Origin: Heterodontus francisci
Lineage: Eukaryota
NCBI RefSeq assembly: GCF_036365525.1
Contig: NC_090406.1
Coordinates: forward strand, 36,457,515-36,521,514
Length of the DNA: 64,000 bases
Direction of reading: 5' to 3'
Shown: piece by piece, positions 2,119 through 51,460 of the stretch
How the letters are laid out: the number at the start of each line of letters is the position of its first letter
Position numbering within the stretch: position 1 is the first letter of the stretch
Translations under genes and position numbers: made by a program
The notes under the pieces: generated by a model
What the model was told of the DNA's origin: nothing
What the model saw: only the letters and a program-made list of their open reading frames with translations
Databases searched by the model: none

Positions 2119-2124
2119 AATAAA
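2119..2124 (+). terminator. Probable polyadenylation signal of gene A
   Basis: AATAAA whose flanks align by eye with the AATAAA at 47278-47283 downstream of paralog C. Confidence 0.45.
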
Positions 2125-6926: not shown

Positions 6927-7157
6927 CAGTCTTTGCTCCATTACCTTTTGGTCAGCTATTCTGTGACCTTGTCCTATCAACGCCTTCTCTTTTGTTAACT
7001 CTTGCCTCATCCCCGCTTTACTTGCTTAAAATCTTTTACATTTCTTATATCTGCCAGTTCTGGAGAAGGATCAGTGACCTGAAACGTTAACTCTGCTTCT
7101 CTCTCCACAGATGCTGCCAGACCTGCTGAGTATTTCCAGCATTTCTTGTTTTTATTT
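6927..7157 (+). mobile_element. Short retroposon fragment (Penelope-like/SINE-like 3' end) with degenerate hammerhead core
   Basis: Flanked by a 12-bp TSD TAGCTTTATCCC (6915-6926 / 7158-7169). The same sequence family recurs at ~24065-24150(-), ~33840-33980(+), 34017-34147(-), ~41855-41945 and ~60075-60160. Confidence 0.7.
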
Positions 7158-7469
7158 TAGCTTTATCCCTAGTTGGCTCCACAATGTATTGCTCCAGGAA
7201 ACTGTCACAAAAATATTCCCCAAACTCATCTTCTCGACCACCCTTGGCAATCTGATTGGCAGTCTATATGAAGATTAAAGTCCCCCAGAATTATTACATT
7301 GCCTTTGTTAAAAGCTCCAATAATTTCTTGTTTAATGCTCTGTCCAATGGTATAACTACTGTTAGGGGTTCTGTAAACTACTCCCACCAGTATTTTCTGA
7401 TTCTTGCTATTCCTAATCAAAGTAATTCATGACAACGCTACTTCATCGGAGAACGTCATCAGGATGCGC

Positions 7470-7710
7470 CGCGTTCCGCACATGCGCAGACGGTTTCATG
7501 CCCGTTGCGCATGCGCAGCGGTCCGACTCTCCAGGACTGATTTGCGCATGCGCAAAGGACGCGGTACGCGCATGCGCACACATTCTATTCATCTCTGCGC
7601 ATGCGCTGCGGTCCAACCTGCCGGTCAGGTTGTGCGCATGCGCAGATGACGTCATCGCGTTATTTCGTCAACCTCCCGACGCGCCAGTTTGGCCTCTGCG
7701 CATGCGTCAA
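7470..7710. promoter_or_regulatory. Cluster of GCGCATGCGC palindromes (NRF1-type motif) plus a CRE palindrome in the transposon left end
   Basis: About 7 copies of (T)GCGCATGCG(C) near 7477, 7506, 7543, 7567, 7596, 7633 and 7697; ATGACGTCAT near 7647. Confidence 0.55.
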
Positions 7711-7971
7711 AGCTTCGGCGCGGCTTTTTGAAAGTGGAAGGAGCGGAGGTTTCGTCGGGCACCTTATCTGAATTATTTATTCGTTTTGGAGACTTGCTTC
7801 ATTTTTATTTGACACAGGAGATTGTTCCAAGGTAAGTTGCTCTGCCTTTGTAAGTTGCTCTGAAAACATTTCCATTGTCTGGGCCACCGCATGTTCTCCA
7901 GTCCCTGTTGTGAGTTGCTCTGAAAACATTTCCATTGTCTGGGCCACCGCAGGTAGCAGGATGAAGGCACA

Positions 7972-8985
7972 GTGACTGTGATTTCTGGCGCCAAACAGTA
8001 CACACTGCAGATACATGATGGCCAGGCTACCTGCAGCTGCATCTTCTCCATTCAGATTTTGTTGCCCTGCAAACGTGCTGTTGTTGTGCAGAGGCATCTG
8101 GGTCTGCCTTTGGACAGGCTCGCCCCCAATTGTCGCTGGCGTGCATCTCAGACACCAACGACGACAGGCATGGCTGCTGCCATTGTGATTACAGAGGAAC
8201 AGCCAAGGCCCCTCAGCCACAATGAAAAATACCGCTTGCTTTCAGATCAATTGTACCAGCTGCAACAGGCCGTTCTGCAGAGTGGAACGGCAGCATTCAT
8301 GAGGAGACTGGACTGGCTGCGGCAACAGACTCTCCGCTGGCAGCAAGGACTGGCTGATGAGATGGAGCCATTTACTATGCCCAACAATTGCCCGGAAGCA
8401 CCTTCGGATGGAGGTGGCCGCGCGCTGGACATCAGTCACGTGTCACAAACCCTGGATCCTGAGCGTCTCACCCCCTGGCCTAATGATCTGATGGACCATA
8501 CATGTGCCTACCTGTCCAAATCTCCACTTCCCCTACCTGCGGTACCCTCTCCTTGCTGCTCAGTTACACAGTCACCTGCTCCTACACCCATCAGGGCAGT
8601 GCACATGGACACACAGTTACCTGCTCCTACACCCATCAGGGCAGTGCACATGGGCACACAGTTACCTGCTCCTACACCCATCAGGGCAGTGCACATGGGC
8701 ACACAGTTACCTGCTCCTACACCCATCAGGGCAGTGCTCATGGACACACAGCCACCTGTTACCCCATCCGACGTTGAAACAACCATGCAGAGCCTTGTGA
8801 GACTCCGCAATTGCCAGTTGCTGCCTGTCAAGCAGAGAGGGCGTCCAAAGGGGTCAAGCACTTGGGGAACATTCAGCAAGAAGAGACTGAGCACTAAAAG
8901 AAACAAGCATGCCGTGTCCAGTGGTAGCAGAAATGTGAATGCTCTTGCTGTGAACACAACTGGTGATAGTCGTAGGCAGGATTAA
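7972..8985 (+). pseudogene. C-terminal part of a MULE transposase-like ORF (SWIM zinc finger, Pro/Thr repeat, RGRPK basic motif)
   Basis: YTLQIHDGQATCSCIFSIQILLPCKR matches the SWIM pattern CxC-xn-LPCxH with H>R. KQRGRPKG is AT-hook-like. No DDE catalytic domain upstream; in-frame stop at 7954. Confidence 0.65.
8566..8760 (+). repeat. 45-bp coding tandem repeat (~4.3 copies; TQLPAPTPIRAVHMG)
   Basis: Unit ACACAGTTACCTGCTCCTACACCCATCAGGGCAGTGCACATGGGC repeated nearly perfectly. Confidence 0.95.
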
Positions 8986-9179
8986 ATGGGAATGGATGGA
9001 AAGACGCACGAGTAACATAACCACTGGCAGGGAACTGCTGGGCTAAATGGCCAGCTTTATGTTCATAGCCCAAAAGAAATGTGCTTCTTTTCCAGCACCC
9101 TCACATCATTCATGTTTTCCCTGAGAGCAGCATTGAACCATCACGAGATAGGGGCAGTAACATCATCCTGCCTCCGACA

Positions 9180-9625
9180 GCTGAGGTGGGTACTAATTGA
9201 TTCATTGGCGGTGTTATCAGTACATGCCTTTACCGCAGAACACAAAGCATGCTCAACAGTAATTTCATTGGAGGGAGGGAAGCTCTGACACTGATGTTCT
9301 TTCCTTATTTTCTTTCATGTAAAACGTGCCCTTGAGAAAACAATCCTTGACATTTAAGGACGGCATTCAAGCAAAGGAGGCAGTGCGGGAGAGGACGCAA
9401 GGATGTGCTGATTCCTGCATCTGAGGTGGGTAATAAGTGCTTCATTGGCGACGTTATCAATTGGTGCCTTCACTGCAGAACTTAAAAAGGTGTGCACAAC
9501 AGTAATTTCAGTGGATGGAGGGAGGCAAGCTCTGACTCTGATTTGCTTTATTTCTTTTCATGTAAAACATGCCGTCGAGAAAACAATCCTTGAGACTTAA
9601 GGTCAGCATTCAAGCAACGAAGGCA
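9180..9625 (+). repeat. Diverged ~240-bp tandem duplication inside the MULE
   Basis: CTGAGGTGGGTA...TTCATTGGCG...CAACAGTAATTTCA...GAGAAAACAATCCTTGA...GCATTCAAGCAA at 9181 and again at 9421. Confidence 0.85.
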
Positions 9626-10319
9626 ACTAGATCATGCTGCGGAGCTCATCACGATGTGGAAAGGAACATTGCATTTATGGATGAATTGGGAATGCACATT
9701 GGGATGCACTTGGGGAACATTCACCAAGAATAGACTGAGCTCAGACTCTTGTGACTTTGCCTTCTTCACATGGACAATACAGTAGTGGAATAGAGAGCCA
9801 AGCTTTTATTCACCACAAGGCTCTCCAGGAACAATCTCTTCAGCTGTGCATAGCAGAGAATCGGCCTGTCTAACGGGAATGCTGGACACAACACTCATGT
9901 ATCCATGCACAGCAGTTCCTCGGATACTTAATGAACTTAATAAAACTTTTCAATAATTAAACCCAGAATTGTTGAGGTTTTGATTTGCATGCTATTTCCC
10001 CGACTTTGCAACTGCACTTCAGATATTCAACTATGGTGGGGGGGCAGAGGGAGGGGTGTTTGAAGAGGGAGAGTGCGGGGAGGGGTGGGGAGAGGGAGCA
10101 TGCAAAATGCAGGGACCAAACAGTTGCAATGCCTGAAGTACTGAGGAGAAGTAGAGAAAGCAACTGGGTAGGGGAGAAAGCAACTGGATTGGGCATCCGC
10201 AGCTGGAGGGAACGGCTGAATGGAGAGGGCCGCGGGGAGCGAGCGTGCGAAGACCTTGGTGTCACCGGGTCCAGGGACTGGCCAGTAAGTCTTTTGCTGC
10301 ACTCCTCTTCCGTTCCGCT

Positions 10320-10642
10320 GCTCCCCCCCCACTCTCTCCCCTTCCTCCCTCTCCCCCCAGCTCTCCCCCTCCCCCCTTCCTTACCCCTCCCTCTCCCTCA
10401 TTCTCCCCCCCTCCCTCTTTCTCCCCCTCCCTCTCCCTCCCCCTCCCTCTCCCTCCCCCCCTCCCTCTCCCTCTTTCTCCCCCTCTCCCCTCCCTCTTTC
10501 TCCCCCTCCCCCCTCCCTCTTTCTCCCCCTCCCCCCTCCCTCTTTCTCCCCCTTCCCCCTCCCCCCTCCCTCTTTCTCCCCCTTCCCCCCTCCCTCTTTC
10601 TCCCCCCCTCCCTCTCCCTCTTTCTCCCCCCCCCCCCTCCCC
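10320..10642 (+). repeat. Polypyrimidine (C/T) low-complexity tract
   Basis: About 320 nt almost exclusively C/T, built from CCCTCCCTCTTTCTCCCC-like units. Confidence 0.95.
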
Positions 10643-10677
10643 GGCACCGCTACCGCTGGTCTCCCAGCGCTGCTCTC

Positions 10678-10917
10678 CCCGGCCCCCGCGCTGATCTCCC
10701 CGGCCCCCGCGCTGCCTTTCCCGGCCCCCGCGCTGATCTCCACGGCCCCCGCGCTGATCTCCCCGGCCCCCGCGCTGATCTCCCCGGTCCCCGCGCTGAT
10801 CTCCCCGGCCCCCGCGCTGATCTGCCCGGCCCCCGCGCTGATCTGCCCGGCCCCCGCGCTGATCTCCCCGGCCCCCGCGCTGATCTCCCCGGCCCCCGCG
10901 CTGATCTCCCCGGCCCG
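10678..10917 (+). repeat. GC-rich 21-bp minisatellite (~11 copies)
   Basis: Unit CCCGGCCCCCGCGCTGATCTC repeated with few substitutions. Confidence 0.95.
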
Positions 10918-11999
10918 CTCCACTCTCTCACTCCGGCCATTGTATTCTGCCACGTGTTTGTTAGGTTTCATCTCTGTGATTTTTTGAATAGCGCCATCTT
11001 TAGTCCTGGCAGCTGCAACAGTCGCAGGCTGTGACGTTTTCGTGGCACATGCTGTATCTGCGCATGTGCCAAAACAGCGCCACCTACCGATCGCGTTGTC
11101 AACAATTGCGGTCATTCCTAATCTCCACCCATACCAATTCTACTTCATGATCTTCAGAGCTAAGGTCCTTTCTCACCAATGCACATGTTATCCTTTACTA
11201 TCTGGGCTACCCCTCCTCCTTTGCCATTCTGTCTGCCTTTTCGAAATATTATGTACCATGGAATATTTATTTCCCAATCTTGGTCACCTTGTAACCATGT
11301 CTTTGTAATGGCTATTAGATCTAAACCATTTATTTCTATTTGTGCCACTAGTTCATCTACCTTATTGCAGATGTTTCATGCATTTAGATGAAGAATCTTT
11401 AATTTCAGCAGTTTTAGCAAAATCTGCCTACTTTTATGGAGAGCTGTGACTCACACCCAAGGTGCAACTGCTAACTCAGCTTCCTGCTACTGTAATTAAC
11501 ACCTATTCAACTGATTAACAGATAACTGCCACTGCCAGGCAGTTTTTGTTAATTAGGCTTCTTAACTAGCTTGCAGTTTTAAACTTCTAACTCATAGTCT
11601 GATGGTTAATCTAAATAGCTTGAGAAAAACTTACCAGAGATTTCAATTGCACCGAAATCCTCAGTCCTCAAAGCCCTCTGTCATCGGCTTATTCTGTGCT
11701 ACCTTACTCTCATCTCATCCAAAAGACACCGGGCTGGATTTTATGGCCCCCCCTGAGGGAGGGTCGGAGGCAGGGGAGGCCTGTAGAAATGCAGTGGAGG
11801 GTGCGGAGGACCCGTCGTCGCCCCGTCACCAGGCAACGTTCCCGGGGCGGAATAGACTGATGACTGTCTTCCTGCACAGAGGCCAACTGAGGCCCTTATT
11901 AACGGCTACTTAAGGGCCTCTTCTCCCTGCCACTGGGACTTAACCAGTGGCAGGGGAGGCCTCCGCCCCACGGGGAGGGCGCCTTGTAAAACAGTAAAA

Positions 12000-12900
12000 G
12001 GTTTATGAACTCATTTTACATCAACCTCTAATTCCTTTGCCATCCAGAGAGCTCTGGCTTTGGATGCTCCATCATTCTTCCTCAGGGGAATATGCTTGGT
12101 TTCTACTCAAATTATCTCAGCCTTGAAGGCCTGCCTTTGCTCATTCATTGTTTTCCTGGACAGTCTTTCTTCCAGTCCACCTGTGATAGATCCCTCTCAG
12201 ATCACTGAAATTGGCTGTCTTCCAGTTGGCTATTTTTACCTTTAGTTTTTGTTTGTCTCTTTCCACAGCTACTTTAAACCTTATTATATTATGATCACTA
12301 TTACCCAGATGTTCTCCCATTGCAATGCAGTCCACTTGCCCTACTTCATTCTCCAGAACTAGTGCCAGCACTGTTTCCTTCCTCATTGAGCTAGAAACAT
12401 ATTGATTAAGGAAGTTCTCCTGCATTTTCGGAAGTCTTCACCCTCCTTGCTCTTTATTCTGTTTTTCCCAGTTTACATTATATAGTTCCCTACTATTACT
12501 AGACTATTATTTTTACATTTCTCTGAAATTTGTCTATCAATTTGCTCTTCTATACCCTTGTCACTACTTGGGCATTTATGAAAAACATCCAAAAATGTAA
12601 CAAATCTTTTTCTGTTCCTTAACTGTAACCAAATAGATACAATTTTTGAACCTTTAGCATATCATCCCTTTGTAGAATGGCAATATAATCCTTGATCAAT
12701 ACTGACACCCCCACCCCCACCCTGTTGTTTTTCCTTCTCTATCCCTCCTGAATACATTGTAGCCAGGAAGGTTCAGTGCCCATTCCTTTCCATGTTTAAA
12801 CATGATCTTTGATATAGCCACTATAGCATAACACCAGGTGGCAACTTGCACCTGCAGATCATCAGCCTTATTTGGAACATTACAGCTCAGTAACCTCATT
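12000..12900 (-). mobile_element. Decayed CR1 LINE fragment (endonuclease region)
   Basis: Minus-strand peptides EHLGNSDHNIIRF and LNLPGYNVFRRDREG. Confidence 0.75.
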
Positions 12901-13034
12901 AGAACTTCATAGTGTTATATTATAAAATTATAGGGCTGAATTTTTGGGCCCACCAGGCAGGAACAGAGGCAGACGGGGCCTAAAAATACCCGCATCGTTC
13001 CCGGCGCCAGCCATTTTAGAGAAGTCTTTCCTCT

Positions 13035-13295
13035 AGCATAAAAGATCCCGTGACACTATTTCAAAGAAGAGCAGGGGTGTTATCCCTGGTGTCCTGGCCA
13101 ATATTTTCCCTCAATCATCACATAAAAAAGACAGATTATCTGGTCATATCACATTGCTGTTTGTGGGAGCTTACTGTATGCAAATTGGCTGTGTTTCCGA
13201 CAACAGTGACTATACTTCAAAAGTACTTAATTGACAGTAAAGCATTTTGAGATATCCTGAGGTTGTAAAAGATGCTATATAAATGCATGTCTGTG
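13035..13295 (+). mobile_element. Deu-domain SINE fragment (SacSINE1/AmnSINE-like) with L2-type tail
   Basis: AAAAGATCCCGTGACACTATTTCAAAGAAGAGCAGGGG...TGTCCTGGCCAATATT resembles the Deu core; ends GCTATATAAATGCA. Family recognised from memory. Confidence 0.65.
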
Positions 13296-14742
13296 TTTTT
13301 ATAAGATTTCCCTGTTATTTTTATAGAAGTTGACTCACGCTAACCTATATCTATGTGTACAGTTGCATAACCAAGGGGTGTACCCACTGTATCCTTTATC
13401 ATCTGAACTGGATATTTGTATCCTTCACATGTGTACTCCTTAATCTGTCTGAAGGCAGTTCGAGCAATCATTTGGTGAAACAAGGCTTGGTACAAGTTAT
13501 TAAACTGCTTTATTTCACAGTAAGATGACATACAGAGCCAGCACTACGATTAGATTCACTTAGTTCAATTGGTATAACTTGTATTCATATGATAATATAA
13601 AAATAATGAACACATTATGCTTCCTTACATTGATGAATTGTCTTGCTTGACTTAAACTAAAACTAATTTCTAAATTCTCTGAATTATTATCTTTTATGCA
13701 GCTTTTTTTTCTGGGTCTCGCTGCTTTATAGCTTTCTGCCTCAAAAATCTTTATCTGTTGTTTGTGTTTGTCTGTCTTTCTCTCTCTTTTTAATCTCTTG
13801 CTGTTCAAAGCCAGACTGCTTGCTGAATGCCCAGAGCCAATAACTCCCTAATGCAGGAGTTTATTGATTATTGAAACAAGTTAACAGATTGCTTTTTAGT
13901 CACAGTATATGAGGAGAAAACATCAAAACTAGCTCATTAGCAACTCAGATAACTATCATCTCAGAACGTTTTTTATCCTGTGTGAATATACTGGGGAAAA
14001 TGTTGGCTAAGCCTAAAAGTGGGCATGGGGATTATGGTACATGATTAACCACACCCCTTCATAGCCTTGCATTAAGTTGGTGGTACCTACTTTTTTAAGT
14101 GATTGCTGCGAGCAACCAGTGCTCCTGTATATTCATTGGCTGCATGCATCAGCAGTGGGCTGATATCACAAGGGGTGACGCTACTTAAAAGGCAGCTCGC
14201 ACCTCTTAAAGAGGAGGTGGATTGTGGTTGTAAGGAGTGGTGCAAGTTTTTTCAAAAGACAATCTGGGTTGAACATGCAAGAGAGCAAGCACTAAGGTTC
14301 TCAGATAATGCACTGGAAGTCTTGGTGCAAGACTTGCAGAGAAGCAGAGACATCCTGTATCCACAGGAGGCAGGAAGCCCCCCAGACACATGCTCAGAAG
14401 GCATTGGAAGACGTGGCAGCAGATGTCGATGTCTGCAGCAGGAATGTGGATGCAGTACAGGAAGAAGTTTAATGATCTGACACAAGTTGTGGCACCACAA
14501 ACCTCACTCACTGCTTAATTCACTACACCCCCATCAACGCCTACCAACAATCTCTATCTATCAGTACTCAACCCGAGAATTCATATACTTTACCTCACCC
14601 TTATATACTCAGCACTGTTGCAAGCCTTGCACTCAACTCACAGCTCATTTGATTTTACACTCACAGCCAGCAGCTCAGAGATCAACACTGAATATTTTAG
14701 AGCATTAAATAGAGGAGGAATCTTTTCTCTATTCTTCCATGG

Positions 14743-15665
14743 TATCATGAAAACCACACCTGCCAAAGTGAGACATATTGGTTTTGTCATACAGCACATT
14801 AATTTTGAACTGTTGCTGGACTGAAAAAAAAATGGCTTGGTTCAAAAGACCACTGAAACATGGCTGTGCATTTTGCATTCTAAAAGACAGTGGGAAAAAG
14901 GAGACAATGGGAATTGCTCACTGATTCAATCAACGAAGATTGGTCTGGGCAACCATGATCCATATCTTGTCTGTGTAAGAGATAGTACTACACCCCCCCA
15001 CCCCACCAAGAGCTTTGAAATGCATACAGGAGCAGTTGTCCCAAATAAGGGGTTAGTCACATGACTAACCTGCTGGCCAACTTGGAGTTTTGAATTGTGC
15101 TCACAGGACAGTTGGAATGGAGACTGCAATTTGAAGACAACAGCGAAGGAAGGTCTCTCCCTCTCTCTCTCTCTTGAAGTTCCAGGGGATCCACTGAAGC
15201 CACTCAAACCTCAAGAGAAGGATCCTGCAACTAAACAAGTTTGAAAGTGTGCATTGGGCCCCAACGAGAACTGCAAGCCAACTACAATCAAAGACTTTAT
15301 ATCAAACCCAAAAGACAGTAACTGAACTCCAGCTATTACTTTAAACCTTTTCCCTTCTTTCTCCTCCTCCGTCTCCATTTGCATGTGTGTTTATCGCGTA
15401 TGCACGCTAGCATGGTCACGTCGCATATTTCTAGTAGTTTTAACCGAATTAGAGTTTTAAGGTTAATAGATTTAAACAAGAAGGTTGTAAGTTTAAGAAA
15501 ACCTGTCTGGTTGATTTCTTTGTCATTACAATTAGAGAGTGGTGAACAAGGATTCACTGAGGGGAAGCTAAAAGCACATTGTTTTAAAAATTAAACCCTG
15601 TTATAGCCAAACCAGACAAAGGCTGAGAGGGGAGCCCTAGAACCCTGCCTCCCCTGGTCAGAACA
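14743..15665 (+). mobile_element. Solo LTR (Gypsy-type)
   Basis: Homologous along its length to 32032-32918. Termini TATCATG...CAGAACA (decayed TG..CA). 4-bp TSD ATGG (14739-14742 / 15666-15669). Confidence 0.8.
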
Positions 15666-16028
15666 ATGGGATGTGGACATCAATGGCAGGCCAGCATTTG
15701 TTGCCCATCCCTAATTGCCCTTGAACTGAGTGCTTTGCTAAGCCATTCCAGAGGGCAGTCAAGAGTCAACCACATTGCTGGGGGTCTGGAGTCACATGTA
15801 GGCCAGACCAGGTAAGGACAGCAGATTTCCTTCCCTAAATCAGATGGGTTTTTACAACAATCGATAATAGTTTCATGGCTAAGACTAGCTTTCAATTCCA
15901 GATTTTTTTTAATTAATTGAATTTAAATTCCACCAGCTGCCATGGTGGGATTTGAACCTGTGCCCCCAGGGCATTAGCATGGGCCTCTGAATTACTAGTC
16001 CAGTGACATTACCACTACATCACCACCT
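15666..16028 (-). mobile_element. tRNA-headed SINE (family also at 29092 and 55878)
   Basis: Reverse complement: GGTGGTGATGTAGTGGTAATGTCACTGGACTAGTAATTCAGAGG...GGTTCAAATCCC (A/B boxes); 3' tail AAGGGCAATTAGGGATGGGCAACAAATGCTGGCC...CCACATCCCAT shared with a local LINE. Confidence 0.8.
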
Positions 16029-17399
16029 CCCCCCAGACACCAGCCACAAGTGCGCAGGAACCAGGGCAGTGGGGGAGGGGGAAGGGTAGGGGCTGGTGAT
16101 TGCTTATATCTCCAGCAGCAGCTTGGAAGCAGCCAGACACAAAGGCCAAGAACCACGGATACCAAGGCTTCCACAAGCATTATTGGCCTTGTCCTACTTT
16201 AAGGCTACAGCTGTAGCTGCAGTAGTTGTCAGATTTCAGTTACAAACTCTTTTGTGAAGTGAGAGCGTGTCAAGCATTGGTCCTCACTGAAGTTGAGGTA
16301 AGGGAATTGATTCTAAAGACCCTTGGCGGATATGGCCTCCTGCTGAGAGCCCTTTGCCCCTTCTTCCTCTTCCCTCTTCTTGCAGCTTGTGCTCTTTTGG
16401 TTTCCCCAGTCATGCTGAATTCTCAGAGGATGCCCTACCAGGCCACTCCTGTCTGGAAGCAAATTGTTTCAACACAATCTTTGCAACCAACAGAAATGTA
16501 CTTCTGCACTAGCTAGACCACTCCGGGTAGACCATCCAAACTTTAGACATGTATAGGAAAGCTCCACAAACAGGTACAATGGCACCAGCAGCCAGAAGAA
16601 ATAATCCAGCAACTAACCTGTAAGTAGTTCATGATTCTTTCAAATACTGTTGGTAAGGGTCTTTCATTGCATTTAGTAGATGTTCAGCTGTGCAGGGTTA
16701 AGACAGGGTGTAGGCTGGAGCGTAGAGTTCGAAAATGGCAGTCCTGATGTCAAATGAGCAGTACACATTGTTTGACGTCATAATCTGCAGGCTCTGCATA
16801 CTGCTGGCGGTCATTAGATGCACACACGAAAACCTTTATATCAAGATGCCATGTGGCGCACTTCCTGTCAGAAGCTTGCAAGTGCATCTCACACTGCATT
16901 TTCAAACACTGGGAGGCTGTGTAACACCTAAAAGATGGACACAATTGATCCCAATTTCCTCCCACTATTTTTTAGCATGCAACATTTCAAATGACAATGT
17001 TTTCCAAATTATTTCTATTGAAAGATGATCACAAGATCTCAAAATGTGACATCTTGCCAAGCCCTTTAACATTCAGACCCACTGTAGCAGACCAGCTTCG
17101 ATCAGCTAACCACACAAACTAGCAATTTAACCTGCTACATTCCTGGACTGTGTAGTTCAGTACCACACCAAACAAAACTTTTACCTGCAAGAGATCTCCA
17201 TCTCTGTCATTTTCAACAACCCATTCCCTCTTTAATACTTCAGATGTTTGAAATACTCCTTAAAAATCCTTTTAATTGTCCTAGACACCTTTGCAATTTA
17301 TTAACATTGCTTTTGATTGGAATGGCCTGTGAATGATTGAAGTGTGATTAAAATTCTACCTCTAAGACTCTCAACATTGGTTGATGACAGCAAGTTGGT

Positions 17400-17525
17400 T
17401 AATTTTATGAATTTCTATTGGTTAGATTTACTGTCAGTATTAAAACAAGTGCCTTCATCTGATGGTATATAATGCATTGCATAAGCTATTGAAAGAAGAG
17501 TTAGAGAAGAATAGATTTGTAGAGA
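17400..17525 (+). promoter_or_regulatory. Core promoter and short non-coding exon 1 of perilipin gene B
   Basis: Inverted CCAAT (ATTGG 17417-17421), TATATAA 17466-17472, donor GTAAG at 17526. The block is conserved with 61680-61800 upstream of gene D. Confidence 0.65.
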
Positions 17526-17819
17526 GTAAGGATTTTTTTTTTAAAAGAAGAAATAATGTTTTTCTTCATATAAGACTTATGAGATGAATTGTGTTTTAAG
17601 CTTTATTTGAAAATAAAAAGTTAATGTGTTTGGTTTTTAGTAGACTGGCATTGAAGTTGTATGTGACTTGTAACTTATAATAAATTATAAGTTGCCTTGT
17701 TCTTGTGAGGGCTGTTCCTATTTAAATATTGTATGATTGTTATTAAGGTTAAGTGGTCATGTCTTAAAAACTGAAGTGAAATGCTTTGAACTCTTCCAGA
17801 GCAGGATTTTTAGCTCATC

Positions 17820-17879
17820 ATGGCATCGGCAGAACAAGTTTCCAACACTAAGGAAATCCAAGAAAATGGAAGCCAACAG
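17820..17879 (+). CDS. Gene B first coding exon (MASAEQVSNTKEIQENGSQQ)
   Basis: Kozak-like ATCATGG; CAG/GTAC donor at 17880. Homologous to 35027-35095 and 62128-62190. Confidence 0.8.
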
Positions 17880-20800
17880 GTACTTGATTGTGCTAACTTT
17901 GGGGGGGGGGGGAATTATTTTGGAAGTAAAATTCCTTTTTTCTAAAGGAAAACTGAATATGGCAATCTTATTGGAAGACAAAATTATAACTAGTAAACAA
18001 CAACTCTCTTGCCTAACTAACTGAAGATGTGACTAAATTTGGGCCTAGAACAAGTGGGTAGGGACTTCATTAATGTTCCACCCAAAAGAGGACTTCTGAC
18101 GACAGCATAGAAAAAAGTTTACATCATTAACTTGGATTAATGAAGGATAACTAGCATGGATTTATTTTTTTTTTTTTTAAATCATGCTTGACTAATCTAA
18201 CAATCCTTTGAAGTGACAGAAGGTTGAAGGGAATGGGCTGAAGACTGTTTATATGGATGAGTGTTTAAGGTACCACATTTATAAAAAAAAAACTTGAGGG
18301 TTATGGTATAATATGTGAAGTGAGGTGATGAATTTTTGGAAGTGATAGCAATATATACTTAATTGGTACAGTTCTAAAGTGTCTGGGACTAGAGGGACCT
18401 GGGGTTTTGTGTGTAGCAACCTTTTAAGGTGGTGGGACCTATTGAGTGTTTAGTAAAGCATATGGGATCTCTAGGATTTGTAAATAGAGGCCTGGAGTAT
18501 AAAAGCAGGGAAGGTACACTAAATTTTTATAAACCTCTAGTTAGGCCCCAACTGCAGTATTGCATCCTGTTCTGGTCACTACACTCTAGGAAGGATGAAG
18601 GCCCTTGAGAGGGTGCAGAGGAAATTTACCAAATGATTCCTGGGATAGAGGATTTTTAGTTACAAGGTTAGTTAGGAAAAGCTGGGTTTGCTCTTCCAAG
18701 GAGATTTAAGTGTACAAGATTATGACTGGCTTAGATAAGTTAAACAAGAAATCTGTCCTTAACTAATGGATTAAGGACCAGAGGGGAGAGATTTCCTTTT
18801 TTTTAGGCAAAAGGAATGAAGAACTTTTTATGCAGCGAGTGGTAATGACTTGGAAAACTCCCTCCCACAAAGGTGGAAGCAGAGACAATTAACTCAAAGG
18901 GATATTGGATGGTCAATTGAAAGACTTGCAAGGCTATGAGGATTGAGAAGGTGGGTGGGACTAAATGATTCAATGGAGAGCTGGCATAGTCTCAAGGAGG
19001 CTGAATAGTCTTTCTATGCTGCCTATCATTCTAGGTTATAATGCTGCCAAGACCACAACTTCTGAGCTTTGTTACCTTGAAAGGTGTGGTTTTTAAATAT
19101 ATGATTAAATGGCTTGGCTTGCTAGCCTATTAAGAGGCTACTGAGTAGCTTTTGACTAAAATTCTGTATAGGAAGTTCAGACTTTAGGTTAACAAGTTGT
19201 TTTTAAACAAATTATTTCATTTTTTCCTTTCTCCATTCCTGCCTGCTGAGAGGTCACAAATTACCTAATTTATTGTATTCAAGCTAGCAATCTGAGCTGT
19301 CAATCCAATACTACAAAAGTACTATACCCTTGAATGATGCTCAAACTCATGATCTCTACATTGGGTGAAAATTGTCCCTAGTTGATTTTGAGGGTTTTCT
19401 TATGCCCCTCCATCCCTAAATCACCTCTCCATAAGAATTTGGTAACTGGTGAGGATTTTTAAAAAGGTGGGATATTTTTATAATGAGAAACAAATAATTA
19501 TGTAATTGTTAATGTGGATCTATCAAATTGACTTGCATGTCTTTGTATTACAGGTCCTTGTTAAAACAAGGAATCCAGTCACACTGCCTGATGTGACAGA
19601 TACAGCAATTGAGGTTGTAAAAACTGCTGTACAAGACCAACTGGAAAGAACTAAAGCAATTGTGGTTGAAGGTGCCAGTGCTGTGGGTCAGCTGCTGGCT
19701 ACTAGTATGGACATTTCTCTCTCCAAGTCTGAGGAACTAGTTGATTACTATCTTCCTATGACCAAGGAAGAGCTAGGTAACTACAAACCCAAAGCTTTTT
19801 TAGTCTTTATAAATCACTTTTGTTCTTAGCTGTTAGACCTAAACTACTTTAGCTGCCTTTAAACTAGATCTTTAACTTGTGCCTATTTCAACAGTTATCT
19901 TCCTTTTTTCTGCTTTGCTTAGCCAAGCATTTTCTGTTGGCTTTACATCTGTGCTTTTAGAGAAATGGGGCATGTTAAATACAATCTCTATAGTCAACTT
20001 GAAGACTTGTATTTTCTGTTTCAGCTAAAGTGGCCACTCCCACTGAAGGCTCTGACACTGCAACAGTACAAGAGCAGAGTTATTATGTACGTTTAGGATC
20101 TTTATCCTCAAAGGTTCGCCATCGTGCATATGAGTATTCCATAACTAGAATTCAGAAAGCCAAGCAAAATGGACAGGAGACCCTATCTCATCTCTACAAG
20201 CTTCTTGAACTGGTAAGAAAACTGGCTTATTATCTACTTCAAGATCTGCAAGAATTCCAGTACAGATCTACATCTAGTAAAGCAATTCTTATGTTCTGAT
20301 CACACTTTTTAAGGGAAAACTAGATAAACAGTAAGGAGAAAATGGGTCATAATGATTTTGGGGGTGGGGTTAGATGGAGTCTCACTCCAACATGGACTAA
20401 CTGGATTGACTTTTTTTTTGTAATGTGCACTTTTATAGATGCTAATTACACACTCCCATTTTTAGTTTATTCCACCACTTCAAGTCTTTGTATGATGTGG
20501 TTTTTTTTTTTTAAAATTCCATGTGATCTTGCTCTACTGTAAGATCTCTATCTAGTGGTTCAAATTGTTCTCCAGCAGAAGAATCCAGGTAAGGCTAAGT
20601 CTTCATGATTACACTAGTAATTGGCTCTTCAATTCTGGGAGTGATGCTGTCTTCAATAGGATGCTTTTGAGTTCATAAACTGTGTTTCCTGTTTTGAAGC
20701 TGTAGATAAAATCAGCCCTTTTAACATGGCTGTTAATGTATTTCTAGATTGAAAGGGCAAAGAAAGGAGCTGAATCGACTCTGTCCAAACCAGAAGATAT

Positions 20801-23212
20801 TAAAGCAAACCTGAATCAGATCCTCCTTGACTGGAGAAAGCAGCAGCCAGGTCTTCATGCAGAAGAGGAGCTGTCAGAAAAACCTGAAGTAAGAAATTTT
20901 AAACATCCCATCATGGCATTGTTAACCTTTTTTGTCTTTTCGCAATGATTTTAAATTCATCTTGAATAGAAGATGAAGAGCAATCCCTCAATTTGATTTT
21001 TGTAGTGTTAACCAGAATTTATAACTAGGTCATTGCTCACTAATGAGCACATGATGCAGAAAATTTTTTAAAGTTTGTTTGGCTAATGCACCAATGACTT
21101 TCAAAGGTGAATGAGCTTATCAAATGCAAGTATAGCACCATTTTTAAAAATTGGCTTCCTTCAGCAGAGGAATCAAAGTAAAGCCTTTCTGTTCCCTTTG
21201 TTTTAAGGGGATTATAATTTCTTGGCCCTCCCCCAAGAGGGAAGTTTGTCTTGTCAAGGATGCAAATTCTTCAGTCATCACCCCAAAAACAATATCTAAT
21301 TAGCAGATCTATTTTACAGAAATTGGCTATACATACAAATATCCCAAGGCATTTCATGAGCATTAGCTACAGAATTTAGCACTGAGCCACAAGGAGCTAT
21401 TGGGAGAAATGACCAAAAGCTTGGTCAGGTATGTTTAAAGGAGGGAATTTCAGAGCTTGGGGCCCAAGCAGCTGAGGGTATGACTATGGTGGAGTTCCTT
21501 TAAATTAGGAATGGGAACAGAAATCCAGAAGTTAGTAGCATTTGTGGTTACATGATTGGGTGGGGGGGTGGAAGGATTTGAAAAGATGAGCATTCTAAAT
21601 TTTTGGATTGGCTTGTCTGACCATAGATCAGTAAGCACTGGTAATAGAAGGGGACTTTGCTGCTTGTGTACTTAGCAAGTTTTGAAAGTTCAATTTCAAG
21701 GTGGGCCAGGTGATTGTTGCCTTGAGAATTCACTTTTCAAACAAAGACATGGATGAGGGTTTCAGCAACAGATGAGCTGAAGTAGGTGGCCTTGATGATG
21801 GGAGTGGATATATGGTCAGAAGCTCCTATCTGGCAAAGATCAAAGTTGCCAAGGAGAGCTAATGTTGCCAACACTTGTGGTGGGGACCAAAGACAATAGC
21901 TCCAGTCTTCCAATATCTACTTGGAAGAAATTTTATTTTCATATGATTTCAGGATGTCAGATGAGCAGTATGGCCAATAGTGTGAAGTAGAGCTGAGTCG
22001 TTAGTGTACAAGTGGAGCCTCACTTGGTTATTGGATAACAGCAGCATGTAGATGACCACCACAGGTTTCAAGGTCTATTGCAATAGGTAAATGTTGGCTT
22101 TGTCAGTGATGCCCCCCCTCCCCATGAATGTGAGTGGGGGTAGGGGCTGAAGATGCATCCTTCCACTTAGAGTGGAAAGAGATTCCTTTTGCAGGTGGTT
22201 CTCTGTCTAATGCTGAATGGAGATTGGAACCAGGCAAGTCTGCTAGATGGCTAGCTGTTAAATTTATGTCGTCAACGATGTCCAAGGCTTCAGACTATTT
22301 GAAGGACAAGAGATAGTTTGCAGTCACCTATTTGTCTTCAAAGGATGCTTCTGTACTCCGACAAGGGCAGAAACTTTTTTTTTGGGGGGGGGGGGGAAAT
22401 TCAAACATGGGAGTTGAAAGATGGACCTCAATCTGAAGTAACAGCATGTTCAAGGACTTAAAGGGTGCTTGGAGATGGGACAGTAGTTTAAGGGGTCAGA
22501 TTTTCTTTAATGGAGAGGAGATAGCTCTAGGTACTCAAGAATTAATTGGCTTTAAATTCAAGCAAACTAAGTCTGTTCTAGCTTAATTTATTTTTTTTAA
22601 TGTCAGACAACTAATAGCTTGACAAGCTATTGCTGATCCTCTAATTTGGGGTGCAAACATTTTAAAATGGTTCCTAAATCAATTCTTTCCATAATTGGTT
22701 AAGAACTGGCTCTTGCAAATTCCAGGGGAGATTTTCAAGCACTTGACCTGTTGTAGGCTGTCTCTTCCTCCCGACTGCCCCACTACCCTGGTCTCTACTT
22801 ATATGGGATAGACAATTTTTTTTTTCTATTGCAGCAACTTGAATCTCAATCACTGGCCATTACTCGGAATTTCTCTGATCAGCTCCAAGCCATCTGCCAG
22901 TCGCTAGCTTTAAATGTTCGTGGTCTGCCTCAGAATATTGAAGATCAAGTGCAGCACATCTGTAAACTGGCAGAGGAGATCTACAGCTCTCTGTCATCAG
23001 CCACCTCCTTCCAAGAACTGTCCACACAATTCCTGACTCAGAGTAAAGAGAAAATGCTGAAGATCCGTGAGGCAATGGATGGGGTGATGGACTATGTGCT
23101 TCATAACACTCACCTTAACTGGCTTGTGGGACCCTTTATCCCACAGTTGACTGAAGGTCGGAAGCCTTTGTCAACTGAAATGAAGCAATCTGTAACTGAT
23201 CTACCTCAATAG
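17820..23212 (+). CDS. Perilipin gene B: PAT-domain-less perilipin-like protein, 329 aa; join(17820..17879,19554..19776,20025..20212,20748..20888,22835..23212)
   Basis: All introns are GT-AG and phases are compatible (0,1,0,0). 990 nt with no internal stop. Each exon is homologous to exons 2, 5, 6, 7 and 8 of gene C. AATAAA at 23490-23495. Confidence 0.8.
18045..19030 (+). mobile_element. Decayed CR1 LINE 3' fragment in intron 2 of gene B
   Basis: Remnants of SCLTNL, GLEYKSREGTLNFYKPLVRPQLQYCILFWS, LERVQRKFTK. Confidence 0.75.
19554..19776 (+). CDS. Gene B exon (shortened 11-mer-repeat region to LPMTKEEL)
   Basis: TTACAG acceptor; VLVKTRNP...SKSEELVDYYLPMTKEEL; G/GTAAC donor; 223 nt. Confidence 0.85.
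20025..20212 (+). CDS. Gene B exon ([10 protein letters not shown] motif)
   Basis: TTTCAG acceptor; CTG/GTAAG donor; 188 nt, same length as the gene C counterpart. Confidence 0.9.
20748..20888 (+). CDS. Gene B exon (IERAKKGAES...DWRKQQPG...EKPE)
   Basis: TTCTAG acceptor; GAA/GTAAG donor; 141 nt; homologous to 44170-44307. Confidence 0.85.
22835..23212 (+). CDS. Gene B terminal exon
   Basis: Poly-T plus TTGCAG acceptor; QLESQSLAITR...[20 protein letters not shown]...DLPQ*. Confidence 0.9.
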   Translation, partial: QLESQSLAITRNFSDQLQAICQSLALNVRGLPQNIEDQVQHICKLAEEIYSSLSSATSFQELSTQFLTQSKEKMLKIREAMDGVMDYVLHNTHLNWLVGPFIPQLTEGRKPLSTEMKQSVTDLPQ

Positions 23213-24699
23213 ATCAGGATTTTCCTTCCAGCACTTGCCAGGATGGGTATTTATCTAGAAATGTATAATCTTTAGTGTTTGTCATGATTACTGTAGGTTA
23301 TATTTAATGTATAACAGTTGGCCTGAAAAGGACAGTTCTGATGGCCAACTAGATGTAGCAAAGCTGTTGAATATTTACAATTGTTGTCCATATGACTAAT
23401 CTTAAACTTGTTACAGGTTTCCTACTAATATCTGACTACTAGAAGATGCTGACTTGATACTTCTCTGTAGTGCAATTTTCACTAATTGTAATAAACAAAT
23501 GCATCCAAAACAAATGAAATGTTACCTAAATTACTCCGCCTCTCTCATAACCCCTAAATGCATGACTCTAACTAGGATATTGGACACTTTTTTTTTATTC
23601 ACAAGACTTATTTGCAGCAGTCTATGCTTTTTTTAAAAAAAACTTCCAAGAGCAGAACCTGTTCTCCTCCTGCAAGGGCTTGAGTCTTAGAAATTGTATG
23701 TCTCCAATATTCTTGTAATCACTTCAGTTAACACTAATCCTTTTGGTGCAGAAACAGCTGCTGCACATTGGCTTCACCAAAGCCCCACCAGCTCTCAATG
23801 GAGCAAATCAAATACGAGTTTCATAATTTCCAGTCTTTGCTCTTTAGGGTGACCCAACTTTTAGCATACTGATCTACCTTTCTTCCTTTATACCATCTGG
23901 AATAGAATGCCAGCAATAGTTTATTCCAAGCCCCTCTCCTAATAGCTGGGTTTATAAAAAAAAAAAAATCATATTGACCCAGGGTGCAGCTTGATGTGTA
24001 ATACTCTGATTTAATAAAAAATCTGACTTCCCCCACTCACTTGTTCAATTTCCTAAAGTTTAAAAACAAGAAATACTGGAAATATTCAGGTCTGGCAGCA
24101 TATGTGGAAAGAGAAGCAGAGTTAATGTTTTGGGGTCAGTGACCCTTCAGAATTGTGTGCCTTTTTCTTCAGACAGTATATTCCATCAGTGTGATTAGTT
24201 TTAAACAAACTGACCAACCACAAAGCTACTGTTTAAGTGTTCCCTATGACTGGTGGCAAAGGGGGGGCAGCGGGGAAGATATTGGGGGAATCACGCTTAT
24301 TCCTGCCATCTATCTGGAATACTCAATATCGCTACAAGAAGTGTGGGGGTAGACATTGACTACTTTCAGCAAGCAAAAAGATGCCAGCTATCTCTCTCTC
24401 AATCAGTGTCCAACATAATGAGAAAGTAAGTCAATAAATTAATCTTTTAATCTTTAAAACTTCACAAATAGAGTTTTGATTTTAATAGCAACATTTTTTT
24501 AATGCTTTTATCTTTCCAAATTATCTCTGCTTTCTTCCCCTCCCAAGTAAGACAAAAATTGTAACTTTCCACCCCCCCCCCCCCCCCCCCCCCCACACCA
24601 ATCCAAAAGGTTGGACAACCCTGCTTTTATTCTTTCCCCTGCCCCCTGATTTCTCCTACTTTTTTTTTTGGACCATCCTTTTTAAATGTGTTCTGATTC

Positions 24700-25780
24700 C
24701 AGATCCCTTTCTGGAAAGAAATAAACTATCAAATCTGTTACCAAAAAAATTATTAACTCTCCTGCTCTATGGAGAATAACCCTAGCTTCTCCAATCTTTC
24801 CATGGAACTAAAGTCTCTCATCTGTGGTACTATTCTGGTCAATCTCTTCTGTGTCCTCTCCTAAAGTGTGGTACCCAAAATGCCACATGTCCAGATGGTG
24901 CCTAATCTGTCTGTGTGCGTGCATATTTCCTTGCTTTTGTACTCTATGCCTCTATTTCCAAAGACTAGGATTCAGTATGCATTTTTAATAGCTTCTCAGC
25001 TTGTCCTGTATGTACATCCCTAAGTCTTTGTTCCTACACTCCTTTAAAAGATATACCATTTATTTTAGATTCTCCTCTTTTCGTCCTATGAAAATGAATA
25101 GCTTCACATTTTTGTTAAATTTCATCTCCCATGCGTCTGTCTATTTCACCAGTCTGCTCTCCTGAAGATGGTTACAACCCTCATTGTTTACATTTGAGTT
25201 GTCATCGGCAAATTTTGAAATTATGCCCTGTATACCCCAGTCTGTCATTTTAATTTTTTTTAAAAGCTGGTGTCCTAACCCCAAGCCCTAGGGGTTGCTG
25301 CTGCACACATCCCTCTAATTTGAAAATAACCATTCACCACTACACTGCTTTGTGTCCCTTAGCCAATGTCATGTCCCTACAGCCACTTCCATGGTCTTCA
25401 ATTTTGCTAATGTGTGTATCATCTGATACTTTATCTGCCTTTTGAAAGTCCATATGTACACCAAATGCATTACTCTTCTCAACCCTTTCCATTACTTCAT
25501 CAAAGAACTCAATTAAGTTAGTCAAACACTATTTGCCTTCAAATTCCAAGTGCCAATTAACTTTTTGTCCAGGATTAATGTCTCAATGTTTCCCACCCTC
25601 AATGTTCGGGTGACTAGCATCTAATTACCAGGTTTATCTCACCCCCATGTTGAATAGGGGTGTAACACTTGCAATCCTTGGCCTTCTGACACTCCTATAT
25701 CTAATTTCCTCAGCAACTTAGGATGCAACCCATCCAGACCAGATGATTTTTCTATTTTGAGCATTGCTGACTTATTAGGT
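24700..25780 (-). mobile_element. Decayed CR1 LINE fragment
   Basis: Minus-strand LTNLIEFFDEV...MDFQKA remnant plus CR1-like 3' region. Confidence 0.7.
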
Positions 25781-28100: not shown

Positions 28101-29091
28101 TTGATATACAGGAAGAAAGAAATTGTATTTTTATATTGCCTTTCATGACCTCAGGATGTCCCAAAGTGCTTTACAGCCAATATAATACATTCGAACTGTT
28201 GTAATATTCAACATCCATCCAGTACACATCTAATTTCTATTTGTGGGCTGTCCCTTTAAATACAGATGAAATCATGTCAGAGTCTTGGGAAATTACAGTA
28301 TAGAAAGGAGTCATTCATCCCATTGTGTCTGTACTGGCTTTTTGAAAGAGAAATTGTGTGTGTTCCACATCCTCTCTTTTTTTTGTCTGTAACCCTGTAA
28401 GTTCCTCATCTTCAAGTATCTGCCCAACTCCCTTTAAAAATTTTTTACGGAATCTGTTTCCACCACCTTTTCAGGTAGATCCTGACAACTCCGAGGGAAA
28501 TTTTTTTTCTGCATTTCCCCTCGAGATCTAAATCTATGACCTATAGTTATTGGTCCACTTGCCACAGGGAATAGTTTTTCTATCTAATCTATCAAAACAT
28601 CTCATCATCTTGTAAACCTCTATTAGGTCACCTCTTAACATTCTCCTTTTCAAGGAGAACAGTTCTAACTTTTCCAACCTCTCCTGATAATGAAAGATCC
28701 TTAATTCTGGTAATGTCCTGGTAAACCTTCTCTGTACCCTTTCTAAGGCCTTTACATCTTCCCTGAAGTGTGGTGTGCAGAATTGTCACTGCTCCAGCTG
28801 AGATTTAACCAGTGATTCAATACGTTCGAGCATGATGTCTTTGCTTTTATGTTCTATTTTTCTATTATAAACCCAAGTAACCCATGTGACTCTTTTTCAA
28901 CCAGCTTATCAACTTACCCATGCCACCTTTAAGGATTTGTGTATATCGACACAAAGGTCCCTCTGACCATCTACACTTTTCAAAATTGTGCCATTTATAG
29001 TATACTATATTTTCATATTAGTCCATGCAAAGTCATAGTCCTGTGCTTCAAGTTCCATTGGTCGTGCTTCTGTCCATTTCACCATGGGAGA

Positions 29092-35026: not shown

Positions 35027-35095
35027 ATGGCGTCAGAAGTGGCCGAAAACGTTGAAGTCTCCAACCTAACTGAGCACCAGGAGAGCGGAGAACAG
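35027..35095 (+). CDS. Gene C first coding exon ([23 protein letters not shown])
   Basis: GTCATGG Kozak context; CAG/GTACT donor. Confidence 0.85.
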
Positions 35096-51291: not shown

Positions 51292-51460
51292 TATTAATTA
51301 GGCGGCTCATCTGGGGATCAGAATCAGACTAATTGGAGGGCTTGCATTTGGAATCATATTAATTACTCATCTGTGGGATAACATATAAATTGGGATCTTG
51401 CGTCTGGCATCATATTAATTGCTCTTGCATCTGGGATCATATTAATTGGAAACTCGATTG
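51290..51460 (+). repeat. Tandem array of ~6 primer-binding-site-like units
   Basis: Repeated CATATTAATT followed by a degenerate (T)GGGGGCTCGTCCGGGAT, period ~28-35 nt. Confidence 0.75.

Follow-up and report, generated by a model that had tools for sequence, protein, structure and literature searches.

A perilipin gene without PAT exons in the horn shark Heterodontus francisci

The horn shark, Heterodontus francisci, carries an intact, probably functional perilipin gene (gene B) whose product of 329 amino acids (aa) has no PAT domain at its N-terminus. This PAT-less gene is a real new variant within the known perilipin family, and no published description of a PAT-less shark perilipin gene was found in the literature. 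It lies in a stretch of 64,000 nucleotides (NCBI RefSeq assembly GCF_036365525.1, contig NC_090406.1, positions 36,457,515 to 36,521,514), hereafter called the window, in which no non-perilipin host gene was identified. In our opinion, there is about an even chance that B is a working gene of the PLIN3/4/5 lineage that lost PAT by genomic deletion and still acts as a weaker, diacylglycerol (DAG)-blind droplet coat. The analysis establishes the gene structure, PAT absence, ancestry and conservation of B.

A preliminary description made from the sequence alone had raised the possibility of a shark host and had recognized in B an apparently intact gene of 329 codons with all exons open, canonical GT-AG sites, a TATA/CCAAT promoter and an AATAAA signal. 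All of this holds: the recomputed gene has five coding exons and four GT-AG introns, its spliced product is identical, letter for letter, to RefSeq XP_067872003.1, and the promoter and polyadenylation motifs were located by position (a TATA box at 17466 and three reverse CCAAT boxes, at 17316, 17376 and 17417). The region from the promoter to the first intron of B is 60% identical over 885 columns to that of gene D (61353-62202), and no PPAR-element-like repeats were found near any of the three promoters. The features of B are as follows:

17060 to 17819, plus strand: promoter followed by a probable non-coding first exon, with its donor at 17526, and by the first intron, recognized by homology to the D region
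17820 to 17879, plus strand: coding exon 1, 20 codons with a phase-0 donor, homologous to the first coding exon of D and matching the N-terminus of XP_067872003.1
17880 to 19553, plus strand: intron lacking both PAT exons (tblastn, blastn and HMM gave no PAT signal)
18306 to 18868, plus strand: decayed LINE retrotransposon remnant, recognized by similarity to other LINE copies in the window
19554 to 19776, plus strand: coding exon 2, 11-mer amphipathic region (residues 21-72) and start of the alpha/beta subdomain, identified from Pfam Perilipin positions 125-187 and hydrophobic moment
20025 to 20212, plus strand: coding exon 3, alpha/beta strand and bundle helix 1
20748 to 20888, plus strand: coding exon 4
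22835 to 23212, plus strand: last coding exon, with the closing beta strand and stop after bundle helices 2-4
23490 to 23495, plus strand: first AATAAA 3' of the stop codon

Three other perilipin genes lie wholly or partly in the window:

233 to 598, plus strand: last exon of gene A, a full-length C-type gene whose C-terminus matches XP_067872637.1
35027 to 46020, plus strand: gene C, full-length C-type perilipin of 442 aa (RefSeq isoforms XP_067872638.1 and XP_067872639.1), with a GC donor at the end of its sixth coding exon
36068 to 36263 and 38233 to 38315, plus strand: PAT exons of C (196 + 83 nt, i.e. 93 codons)
62128 to 62190, plus strand: gene D (XP_067872004.1, 427 aa, with an intact PAT), of which only the first coding exon falls within the window

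The PAT exons of C had been said to have no counterpart in the intron of B, and four search modes covering this intron and the sequence upstream confirmed it. When PAT was sought by tblastn and blastn with the PAT exons of C, only C's own exons were matched; tblastn with the PAT of D and a 50-sequence PAT HMM also gave matches only at the exons of C (128 and 38 bits). The best PAT score was 1.6 bits in 598-19553 and -0.6 in the intron of B, for a noise level (99th percentile of shuffled introns) of 2.1, and the intron contains no open candidate exon. The Pfam Perilipin profile (PF03036) matches B with 272.5 bits for a cut-off of 33, over positions 101-402 of 403, leaving positions 1-100, and with them PAT, unmatched. 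In simulations of a decayed first PAT exon (200 trials), detection reached 99%, 86%, 56% and 26% at 0.2, 0.3, 0.4 and 0.5 substitutions per site, respectively; since power drops with decay, a heavily decayed remnant could have been missed.

This loss of power, together with the fusion of RefSeq models of the cluster in three species (P0001, P0131 and P0133, in which gene order is kept), leaves a very slight probability that the PAT-less model is an artefact, the PAT exons being misassembled, decayed too far to be detected yet used, or supplied by read-through splicing from A. However, the window is free of any N and thus of gaps, B has its own promoter, six assemblies, independent of one another, and one intronless contig show the same junction of exon 1 to the repeat exon, and PAT exons still in use would stay conserved and hence detectable.

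The junction 17879/19554 is in phase 0, and we propose that A-B and C-D derive from the tandem duplication of one unit of two genes (C-type then D-type), after which the D-type copy B would have lost both PAT exons by a single in-frame genomic deletion (phase 0 to phase 0, 279 nt). The intron does contain a LINE remnant, called CR1 in the preliminary description on the basis of its motifs; its matched span is only about 0.56 kb instead of the 1 kb first announced, with 57-62% identity to LINE copies at 5170-5471 (adjoining an RVT_1 open reading frame), 24765-24988 and 28530-29004. A LINE-mediated deletion of the PAT exons is unsupported: a LINE insertion or deletion breakpoint common to the introns of B and D was sought, and only poly-T/poly-A runs proved homologous. 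An Rfam search gave 0 matches.

The preliminary description compared B with C. We abandoned C as the comparator because, by both identity and tree, the full-length sister of B is D, which is 70% identical to it and keeps both PAT exons (its PAT being 75% identical to that of C). PAT-less relatives were seen in six of 13 shark species, belonging to four orders. As had been suggested, the PAT-less gene is lineage-restricted as far as the proteins examined indicate, occurring only in sharks. The galeomorph PAT-less copies form a clade (100/99) nested in the D-type clade (100/100). PAT loss is older than the split between the horn shark and lamniforms/carcharhiniforms. It may also be older than the hexanchiform split: when the last exon was omitted, all seven PAT-less rows fell in one clade (80/77), and in the full alignment a single PAT-less clade was not rejected (p-AU 0.30), although the Heptranchias PAT-less copy then pairs with its own D paralog (95/83).

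In trees leaving out PLIN1, PLIN4, PLIN5 and PLIN6, a 100/100 split separates 44 rows, in which the shark cluster stands together with tetrapod PLIN3, from 4 PLIN2 rows. RefSeq labels several relatives PLIN2; we rejected PLIN2 orthology for B, which lies outside the vertebrate PLIN2 clade into which a shark PLIN2 (P0088) falls. A coelacanth protein of 331 aa without PAT hit (P0055) was dropped from the trees as a truncated model, since its start lies inside the second PAT exon. A search of 50% clusters also returned proteins of about 330 aa, possibly of human origin, matching the whole PAT-less profile, e.g. P0145 and P0193.

Several observations bear on whether B is maintained by selection. 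Across coding exons 2-4 of five PAT-less copies, 13 of 52 family-conserved columns vary versus 68 of 114 others (p 4.7e-5), much like matched D copies (10 and 54 variable columns). The last exon gives no such signal (12/37 versus 28/70, p 0.53). The repeat exon is 74-85% identical among PAT-less galeomorph orthologs versus 76-82% among D copies. Under neutrality, about 6 stops would be expected on the B branch, with a probability of finding none of about 0.003. The ratio dN/dS between B and C is 0.21 (95% interval 0.12-0.30, 272 codons, dS 1.4), a value given little weight because the path is mostly older than PAT loss; the last exon of A versus C (1.1, 0.38-4.2) and the first exon of B versus D (0.83, 0.24-4.6) have wide intervals. 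Furthermore, a 278-base contig (with P0135) crosses the junction of exon 1 to the repeat exon without intron, which points to a spliced PAT-less transcript in a lamniform-like shark and partly shows its splicing in a relative.

These data make it quite improbable that B is merely a superfluous duplicate in slow decay, with a frame kept open through chance and conversion by D. Gene conversion does affect the last coding exon, which is homogenized within species with the D-type paralog (four of the six species pairs have 87-89%), and B was not found in seven of the 13 sharks, in protein sets where pseudogenes would not show. However, exons 2-4 are not homogenized (exon 4 is only 47-61% identical to D in galeomorph pairs) and yet they are open, with purifying patterns; the promoter is kept, a spliced transcript is indicated, and neutral evolution should have left 16-18 stops in the galeomorph subtree, a figure biased by the annotation of open copies only.

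Concerning the repeat region, the exon following PAT has 223 nt in B and 286 nt in C, so that the 63 nt difference first reported stands with respect to C. It is mostly common to the PAT-bearing D: since D and not C is the sister of B, the region is only 5 residues shorter (52 aa or about 4.7 11-mers in B, whereas D and the Heptranchias PAT-less copy both have 57 aa and C has 73), and it shrinks to 40-45 aa in two copies. Likewise, the two prolines reported as gained are present in B and specific to the horn shark; five of the six other PAT-less copies have none and the sixth has one, and we therefore rejected prolines as a derived feature of the PAT-less subfamily. The hydrophobic moment over 22 residues peaks at 0.42 in B, compared with 0.34 in D and 0.35 in C, and amphipathicity is only marginally above that of shuffles (B has p 0.04, the six other PAT-less copies 0.04 to 0.48). 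AF2 predicts a helix at residues 36-67 with low confidence (below 50 for residues 1-92).

Downstream of this region, the AF2 model agrees with B being, as first proposed, mostly a four-helix-bundle perilipin: the alpha/beta subdomain and bundle match the PLIN3 structure 1SZI over residues 72-312 (Foldseek E 7.8e-12; phmmer E 2.8e-53). The cleft strands of the bundle are conserved, and Leu230 of B stands where the cleft-rim residue S346 is expected (1 of 58 rows; mapped by hand through the 1SZI alignment). The LEPQI-type DAG-binding motif is absent from all seven PAT-less shark rows and, as B has no PAT domain, it has no DAG-sensing motif. We also considered PAT loss as loss of a chaperone-mediated-autophagy motif and rejected it, the PAT of A, C and D having no canonical motif under the usual rules for such motifs.

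The suggestion that B has no droplet targeting appears less likely, its helix being as amphipathic as those of full-length paralogs. In a preprint, human PLIN3 without PAT (AH-4HB) bound droplets stably in yeast and its bundle alone bound partially in HeLa cells; two papers point the opposite way, the PLIN3 11-mer repeats alone being cytoplasmic in cells (with binding that rose with repeat length) and the C-terminal half of Plin3 not binding droplets in Huh7 or HeLa cells. The isolated human bundle binds PE-rich artificial droplets, and bulky substitutions at S346/S347 abolished this binding. B is thus most likely a weaker, DAG-blind droplet coat rather than a non-binder. [quoted passage not shown] The shortness of the repeat region (52 aa), broken by the two prolines, counts against droplet binding, as does Leu230 at the S346 position.

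Somewhat unlikely, in our view, is a functional and mainly cytosolic B with little droplet contact, the bundle cleft carrying a fatty acid or phospholipid or binding a partner, which is close to the modulator proposed initially. It would fit a repeat region that is the shortest among shark paralogs, the cytoplasmic or non-binding PLIN3 fragments cited above, the conserved cleft strands, and the fatty acids reportedly bound in the cleft of the PLIN2 and PLIN5 bundles; it fits poorly with a repeat exon as conserved as that of D, with the retained amphipathic moment and with droplet binding by PAT-less PLIN3 constructs. We regard it as improbable that B is specialized, via the bundle, on some other lipid surface or on the export of lipids, whether at the plasma membrane, in lipoproteins or in the secretion of yolk or uterine lipid. 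Binding to charged liposomes and to the plasma membrane is reported for the PLIN2 bundle, and mouse mammary tissue and macrophages contain Plin2 truncated at its N-terminus, but B is of PLIN3 and not PLIN2 type, and the gene is found in egg-laying as well as live-bearing sharks.

B resembles vertebrate PLIN3 (TIP47) in its placement with tetrapod and coelacanth PLIN3, its putative 11-mer region, and its alpha/beta subdomain and bundle; it differs in lacking PAT and in its short repeat region (52 aa versus residues 114-204 in human PLIN3). The shark cluster, like the PLIN3/4/5 locus, is tandem-duplicated, the two duplications being independent. Mammalian PLIN4 (S3-12), accepted in the family despite having no PAT, descends from the same ancestral PLIN3/4/5 gene. 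However, its 29 33-residue repeats form a very long region offsetting PAT absence, and its bundle has no structured alpha/beta subdomain and did not bind droplets in one study, whereas B (329 aa, without any expanded 33-mer helix) is built the other way round, its helix being short and its subdomain intact. As PLIN4 is described as mammal-specific, PAT loss in sharks would be convergent, the trees having been built without PLIN4. Truncated Plin2 (the macrophage form cut at residues 40-44 and the mammary form) has also lost its N-terminus partly or wholly and still acts on droplets, giving smaller ones, but its source is a full-length PLIN2 gene, the truncation being proteolytic or found in mutant mice, whereas B is a separate PLIN3-lineage gene with a fixed genomic loss. 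Finally, shark D-type genes (XP_067872004.1; chimaera XP_007899323.1) share with B a homologous promoter, first exon and shortened repeat exon, and differ by keeping both PAT exons.

The respective roles of PAT and bundle in droplet targeting are disputed, papers disagreeing on binding by the PLIN3 bundle, and the evidence consulted rests on engineered truncations or on PLIN4, where the comparison is confounded by a huge repeat region. In sharks, B and D form a natural pair, about 70% identical, differing mainly by PAT and under selection since at least the Jurassic, with which DAG sensing, recruitment to the ER, turnover and binding by the bundle can be tested directly. Perilipin evolution also gains a chondrichthyan branch from this gene, the text of a published perilipin phylogeny containing neither 'shark' nor 'cartilag'. 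It is conceivable, if doubtful, that B is a minimal coat reaching lipid surfaces mainly via the alpha/beta subdomain and bundle, retained from before the hexanchiform split, some 280 million years ago, for a store peculiar to sharks, e.g. the very large oil droplets of the liver, and that it lost PAT independently of PLIN4 at the same locus, with the opposite solution. If so, B would be a natural example of a perilipin driven by its bundle, bearing on the disputed role of the latter.

The plus strand of the window carries four tandem perilipin genes (A, B, C and D). RefSeq already has protein models for B and the rest of the cluster; they are predictions with the generic labels perilipin-2-like or perilipin-3-like. 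These genes and the other elements of the window are:

233-598, plus strand: last exon of gene A (XP_067872637.1)
5480-5995, minus strand: LINE reverse-transcriptase fragment
7957-10916: region of a 342-codon open frame without Pfam match that holds a 45-base tandem repeat, with 243-base and 21-base tandem arrays behind it; probably what is left of a transposon
17820-23212, plus strand: gene B, whole
18306-18868: LINE-matching stretch in B's intron, which matches other LINE copies
35027-46020, plus strand: gene C, whole (XP_067872638.1 / XP_067872639.1)
50446-55074: remains of an LTR retrotransposon, with RNase H and integrase-associated fragments; its two terminal repeats, 50446-50710 and 54803-55074, share 89% identity
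62128-62190, plus strand: first coding exon of gene D (XP_067872004.1)
62721-63047: LINE reverse-transcriptase fragment within D's intron after the first coding exon

Gene B comprises five coding exons, all its introns are GT-AG and its open frame has 329 codons. Its spliced product is identical to the 329-aa Heterodontus francisci protein XP_067872003.1, in agreement with the intact gene proposed in the preliminary description. Gene C is made up of seven coding exons with 442 codons in total; its two PAT exons (196 + 83 nt, Pfam Perilipin positions 7-97) are flanked by two phase-0 junctions and therefore removal of both keeps the frame. In the full B protein, the Pfam Perilipin match begins only at position 101. 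The gene D protein, whose PAT domain is complete, is 70% identical to B, and C is 56% identical. The donor of coding exon 6 of gene C (44170-44307) is GC, weak and non-canonical, and the RefSeq isoform X2 protein agrees with this boundary. The following intron holds a partial, frame-broken copy of gene C's coding exon 5 (41564-41662, 79% identical), about 0.9 kb downstream of that exon.

The PAT exons had been described as having no counterpart in B's intron, and tblastn with those of C over 598-19553 indeed gave no match. Within the window, only C's own exons were matched, whether the query was C's PAT exons (tblastn and blastn), D's PAT (tblastn) or a 50-sequence PAT profile run in all six frames. 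PAT scores peaked at 1.6 bits across 598-19553 and at -0.6 within B's intron, both under the 99th percentile of shuffled sequences (2.1). That the PAT-less gene is an artefact is hardly credible, since the window has no gaps. B's PAT-less intron is 1674 bases long, versus 4357 for the corresponding span in C. A simulated decayed first PAT exon was recovered in 99, 86, 56 and 26% of cases at 0.2, 0.3, 0.4 and 0.5 substitutions per site (200 simulations per level). The promoter and non-coding DNA of B and D are 60% identical across 885 columns, a divergence that we estimate, as a lower bound, at roughly 0.2 substitutions per site per branch. The PAT exons of B were therefore more likely removed by deletion than decayed in place.

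A profile search scored 8000 candidates, of which 787 passed and the best 120 were listed; 58 rows were built from its named matches. Of 263 candidates, 42 were returned in a search with B's last exon, and the 329-aa Heterodontus francisci protein was one of them. PAT is absent from eight of the 58 rows, seven being shark B-type proteins and one a coelacanth model, which begins inside the second PAT exon and was dropped. The B-type rows come from Heterodontus, Heptranchias perlo, Scyliorhinus torazame, S. canicula (second half of a fused model), Mustelus asterias (two copies) and Cetorhinus maximus, i.e. 6 of 13 shark species among the matches listed, which we take to belong to four orders. 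In six of the seven, the same first exon leads directly to the repeat exon; the N-terminus differs in one Mustelus model. Among the matches listed, no B-type was seen in the annotated proteins of five orectolobiforms, Carcharodon, Pristiophorus, four rays and a chimaera, which is weak evidence since the search covered annotated proteins alone. Among the same matches, the four rays have C-type proteins only and the chimaera both C- and D-type; there are hints that the D/B lineage may have been lost in rays. Both Mustelus copies (P0006 and P0008) carry a Gly-to-Glu change in the closing beta strand, and Heptranchias has two near-identical D-type genes (P0011 and P0126) beside its PAT-less copy. 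In the lamniform D copies of Carcharodon (P0015) and Cetorhinus (P0018), PAT is 58-61% identical to that of C, versus 72-81% in other D copies, and shows small deletions and an altered DAG-binding motif; this PAT domain itself appears to be eroding.

The region after PAT was used for a tree of 48 rows, which are the 58 less two incomplete models and eight redundant rows. In this tree, the shark cluster joins coelacanth and tetrapod PLIN3 against PLIN2 (support 100/100). A chimaera protein with a PAT domain is sister (99/97) to a clade that unites B-type and D-type (100/100). Support is 100/99 for a clade of the six galeomorph PAT-less rows, and the Heptranchias PAT-less copy pairs with its own D paralog (95/83). 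Within a species, the last exons of B and D have been homogenised and are 87-89% identical in four of six pairs, whereas exon 4 of B and D is 47-61% identical in galeomorph pairs. Without the last exon, all seven PAT-less rows fall in one clade (80/77, 26 rows), and the full alignment does not reject a single PAT-less clade (p-AU 0.30). These alignments favour a single origin of PAT-less perilipins. The accessible part of a preprint (10.64898/2026.02.13.705779) places most shark interordinal splits in the Early-Middle Jurassic and the hexanchiform split at about 280 million years. Fused RefSeq models show a C-type gene immediately ahead of B (S. canicula) or of D (S. torazame and Chiloscyllium punctatum). 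This is the A-B, C-D order of the window, which suggests that a pair of genes may have been duplicated as one unit to give the cluster. The last exons of A (233-598) and C (45652-46020) are about 96% identical at silent and replacement sites alike, and C-type pairs cluster by species in Heterodontus, Heptranchias and Pristiophorus (48-row tree), pointing to ongoing gene conversion.

Gene B is very probably real and under selection. In exons 2-4 of five PAT-less copies, family-conserved columns (defined from 32 full-length references) are less variable than other columns (13/52 vs 68/114, p 4.7e-5), which makes a decaying gene very improbable. In matched D copies, the same test gave 10 and 54 variable columns; in the last exon, the contrast is absent (12/37 vs 28/70, p 0.53). 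Horn shark B shares 75-77% identity with its orthologs in galeomorphs, and D 75-79% with its own. Under neutrality, B's branch should have gathered about 6 stops (a stop-free branch has a probability of about 0.003) and the galeomorph subtree 16-18, the latter a figure biased because annotation takes in open copies alone. Between B and C, dN/dS is 0.21, but much of this path is older than the PAT loss.

A short-protein search with B residues 1-125 found one of eight candidates, P0135, a 70-aa partial protein from a 278-base contig. It is labelled bacterial but is likely a shark perilipin fragment contaminating the database: all of its 70 residues align with the basking-shark B protein, at 91% identity, and its first exon continues into the repeat exon unbroken. 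The simplest reading of this one short record, which is no evidence for the horn shark itself, is a stray cDNA of a lamniform-like shark, in which case splicing in vivo would produce the PAT-skipping junction. If it were instead a retrocopy or the result of intron loss, a transcript would be implied as well.

An AlphaFold2 model of B (17-row alignment, mean pLDDT 59) has a disordered N-terminus, a low-confidence helix (36-67), alpha/beta elements (79-117 and 301-305) and bundle helices (123-294); the one structure that it matches significantly is 1SZI, the C-terminal domain of TIP47. The shortening of the repeat exon relative to C is real (52 vs 73 aa) but not specific to B, as 16 of the 21 missing residues are already missing in PAT-bearing D (57 aa). 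Likewise, the two prolines reported as gained in this region are confined to the horn shark and do not characterise PAT-less perilipins. The peak hydrophobic moment of B's repeat region (0.42) is not below that of D or C, though it is just marginally above shuffles. The cleft strands are conserved; leucine at position 230, equivalent to human S346 (mapped by hand through 1SZI), is found in B alone among the 58 rows.

In the accessible excerpts of the studies cited here, DAG sensing and ER recruitment are assigned to PAT (PMC10694602, PMC10238389, PMC13753571), and human PLIN3 has its expanded PAT at residues 22-116 (PMC10694602 / PMC10238389), a length close to that of the 93-codon block missing from B. 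According to the same excerpts, the isolated bundle binds PE-rich droplets via its cleft (PMC13382019), truncated Plin2 remains active on droplets, which become smaller (PMC12921128; PMC9500548), and any two PLIN3 domains are enough in a membrane-anchored assay (PMC10350540). We infer, with about even confidence, that B may act as a weaker, DAG-blind droplet coat. Against droplet binding, these excerpts report that 11-mers alone remained cytoplasmic (PMC10694602 / PMC10238389), that Plin3-C lacked droplet localisation (PMC6589688) and that bulky cleft-rim residues abolished bundle binding (PMC13382019). A mainly cytosolic role is possible, if rather unlikely, and action at another lipid surface is improbable.

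Among the matches listed in a literature search with most subscription journals outside its scope, nothing was found on shark perilipins or a PAT-less paralog except PLIN4; the words 'shark' and 'cartilag' are absent from the accessible part of a vertebrate perilipin phylogeny (PMC5342826). PLIN4 likewise lost PAT at the same ancestral locus and is a precedent for B, but its compensation for this loss is opposite to that of B. The PAT-less shark perilipin can be viewed as real, old and testable, with a precedent in PLIN4 and a function that we infer.
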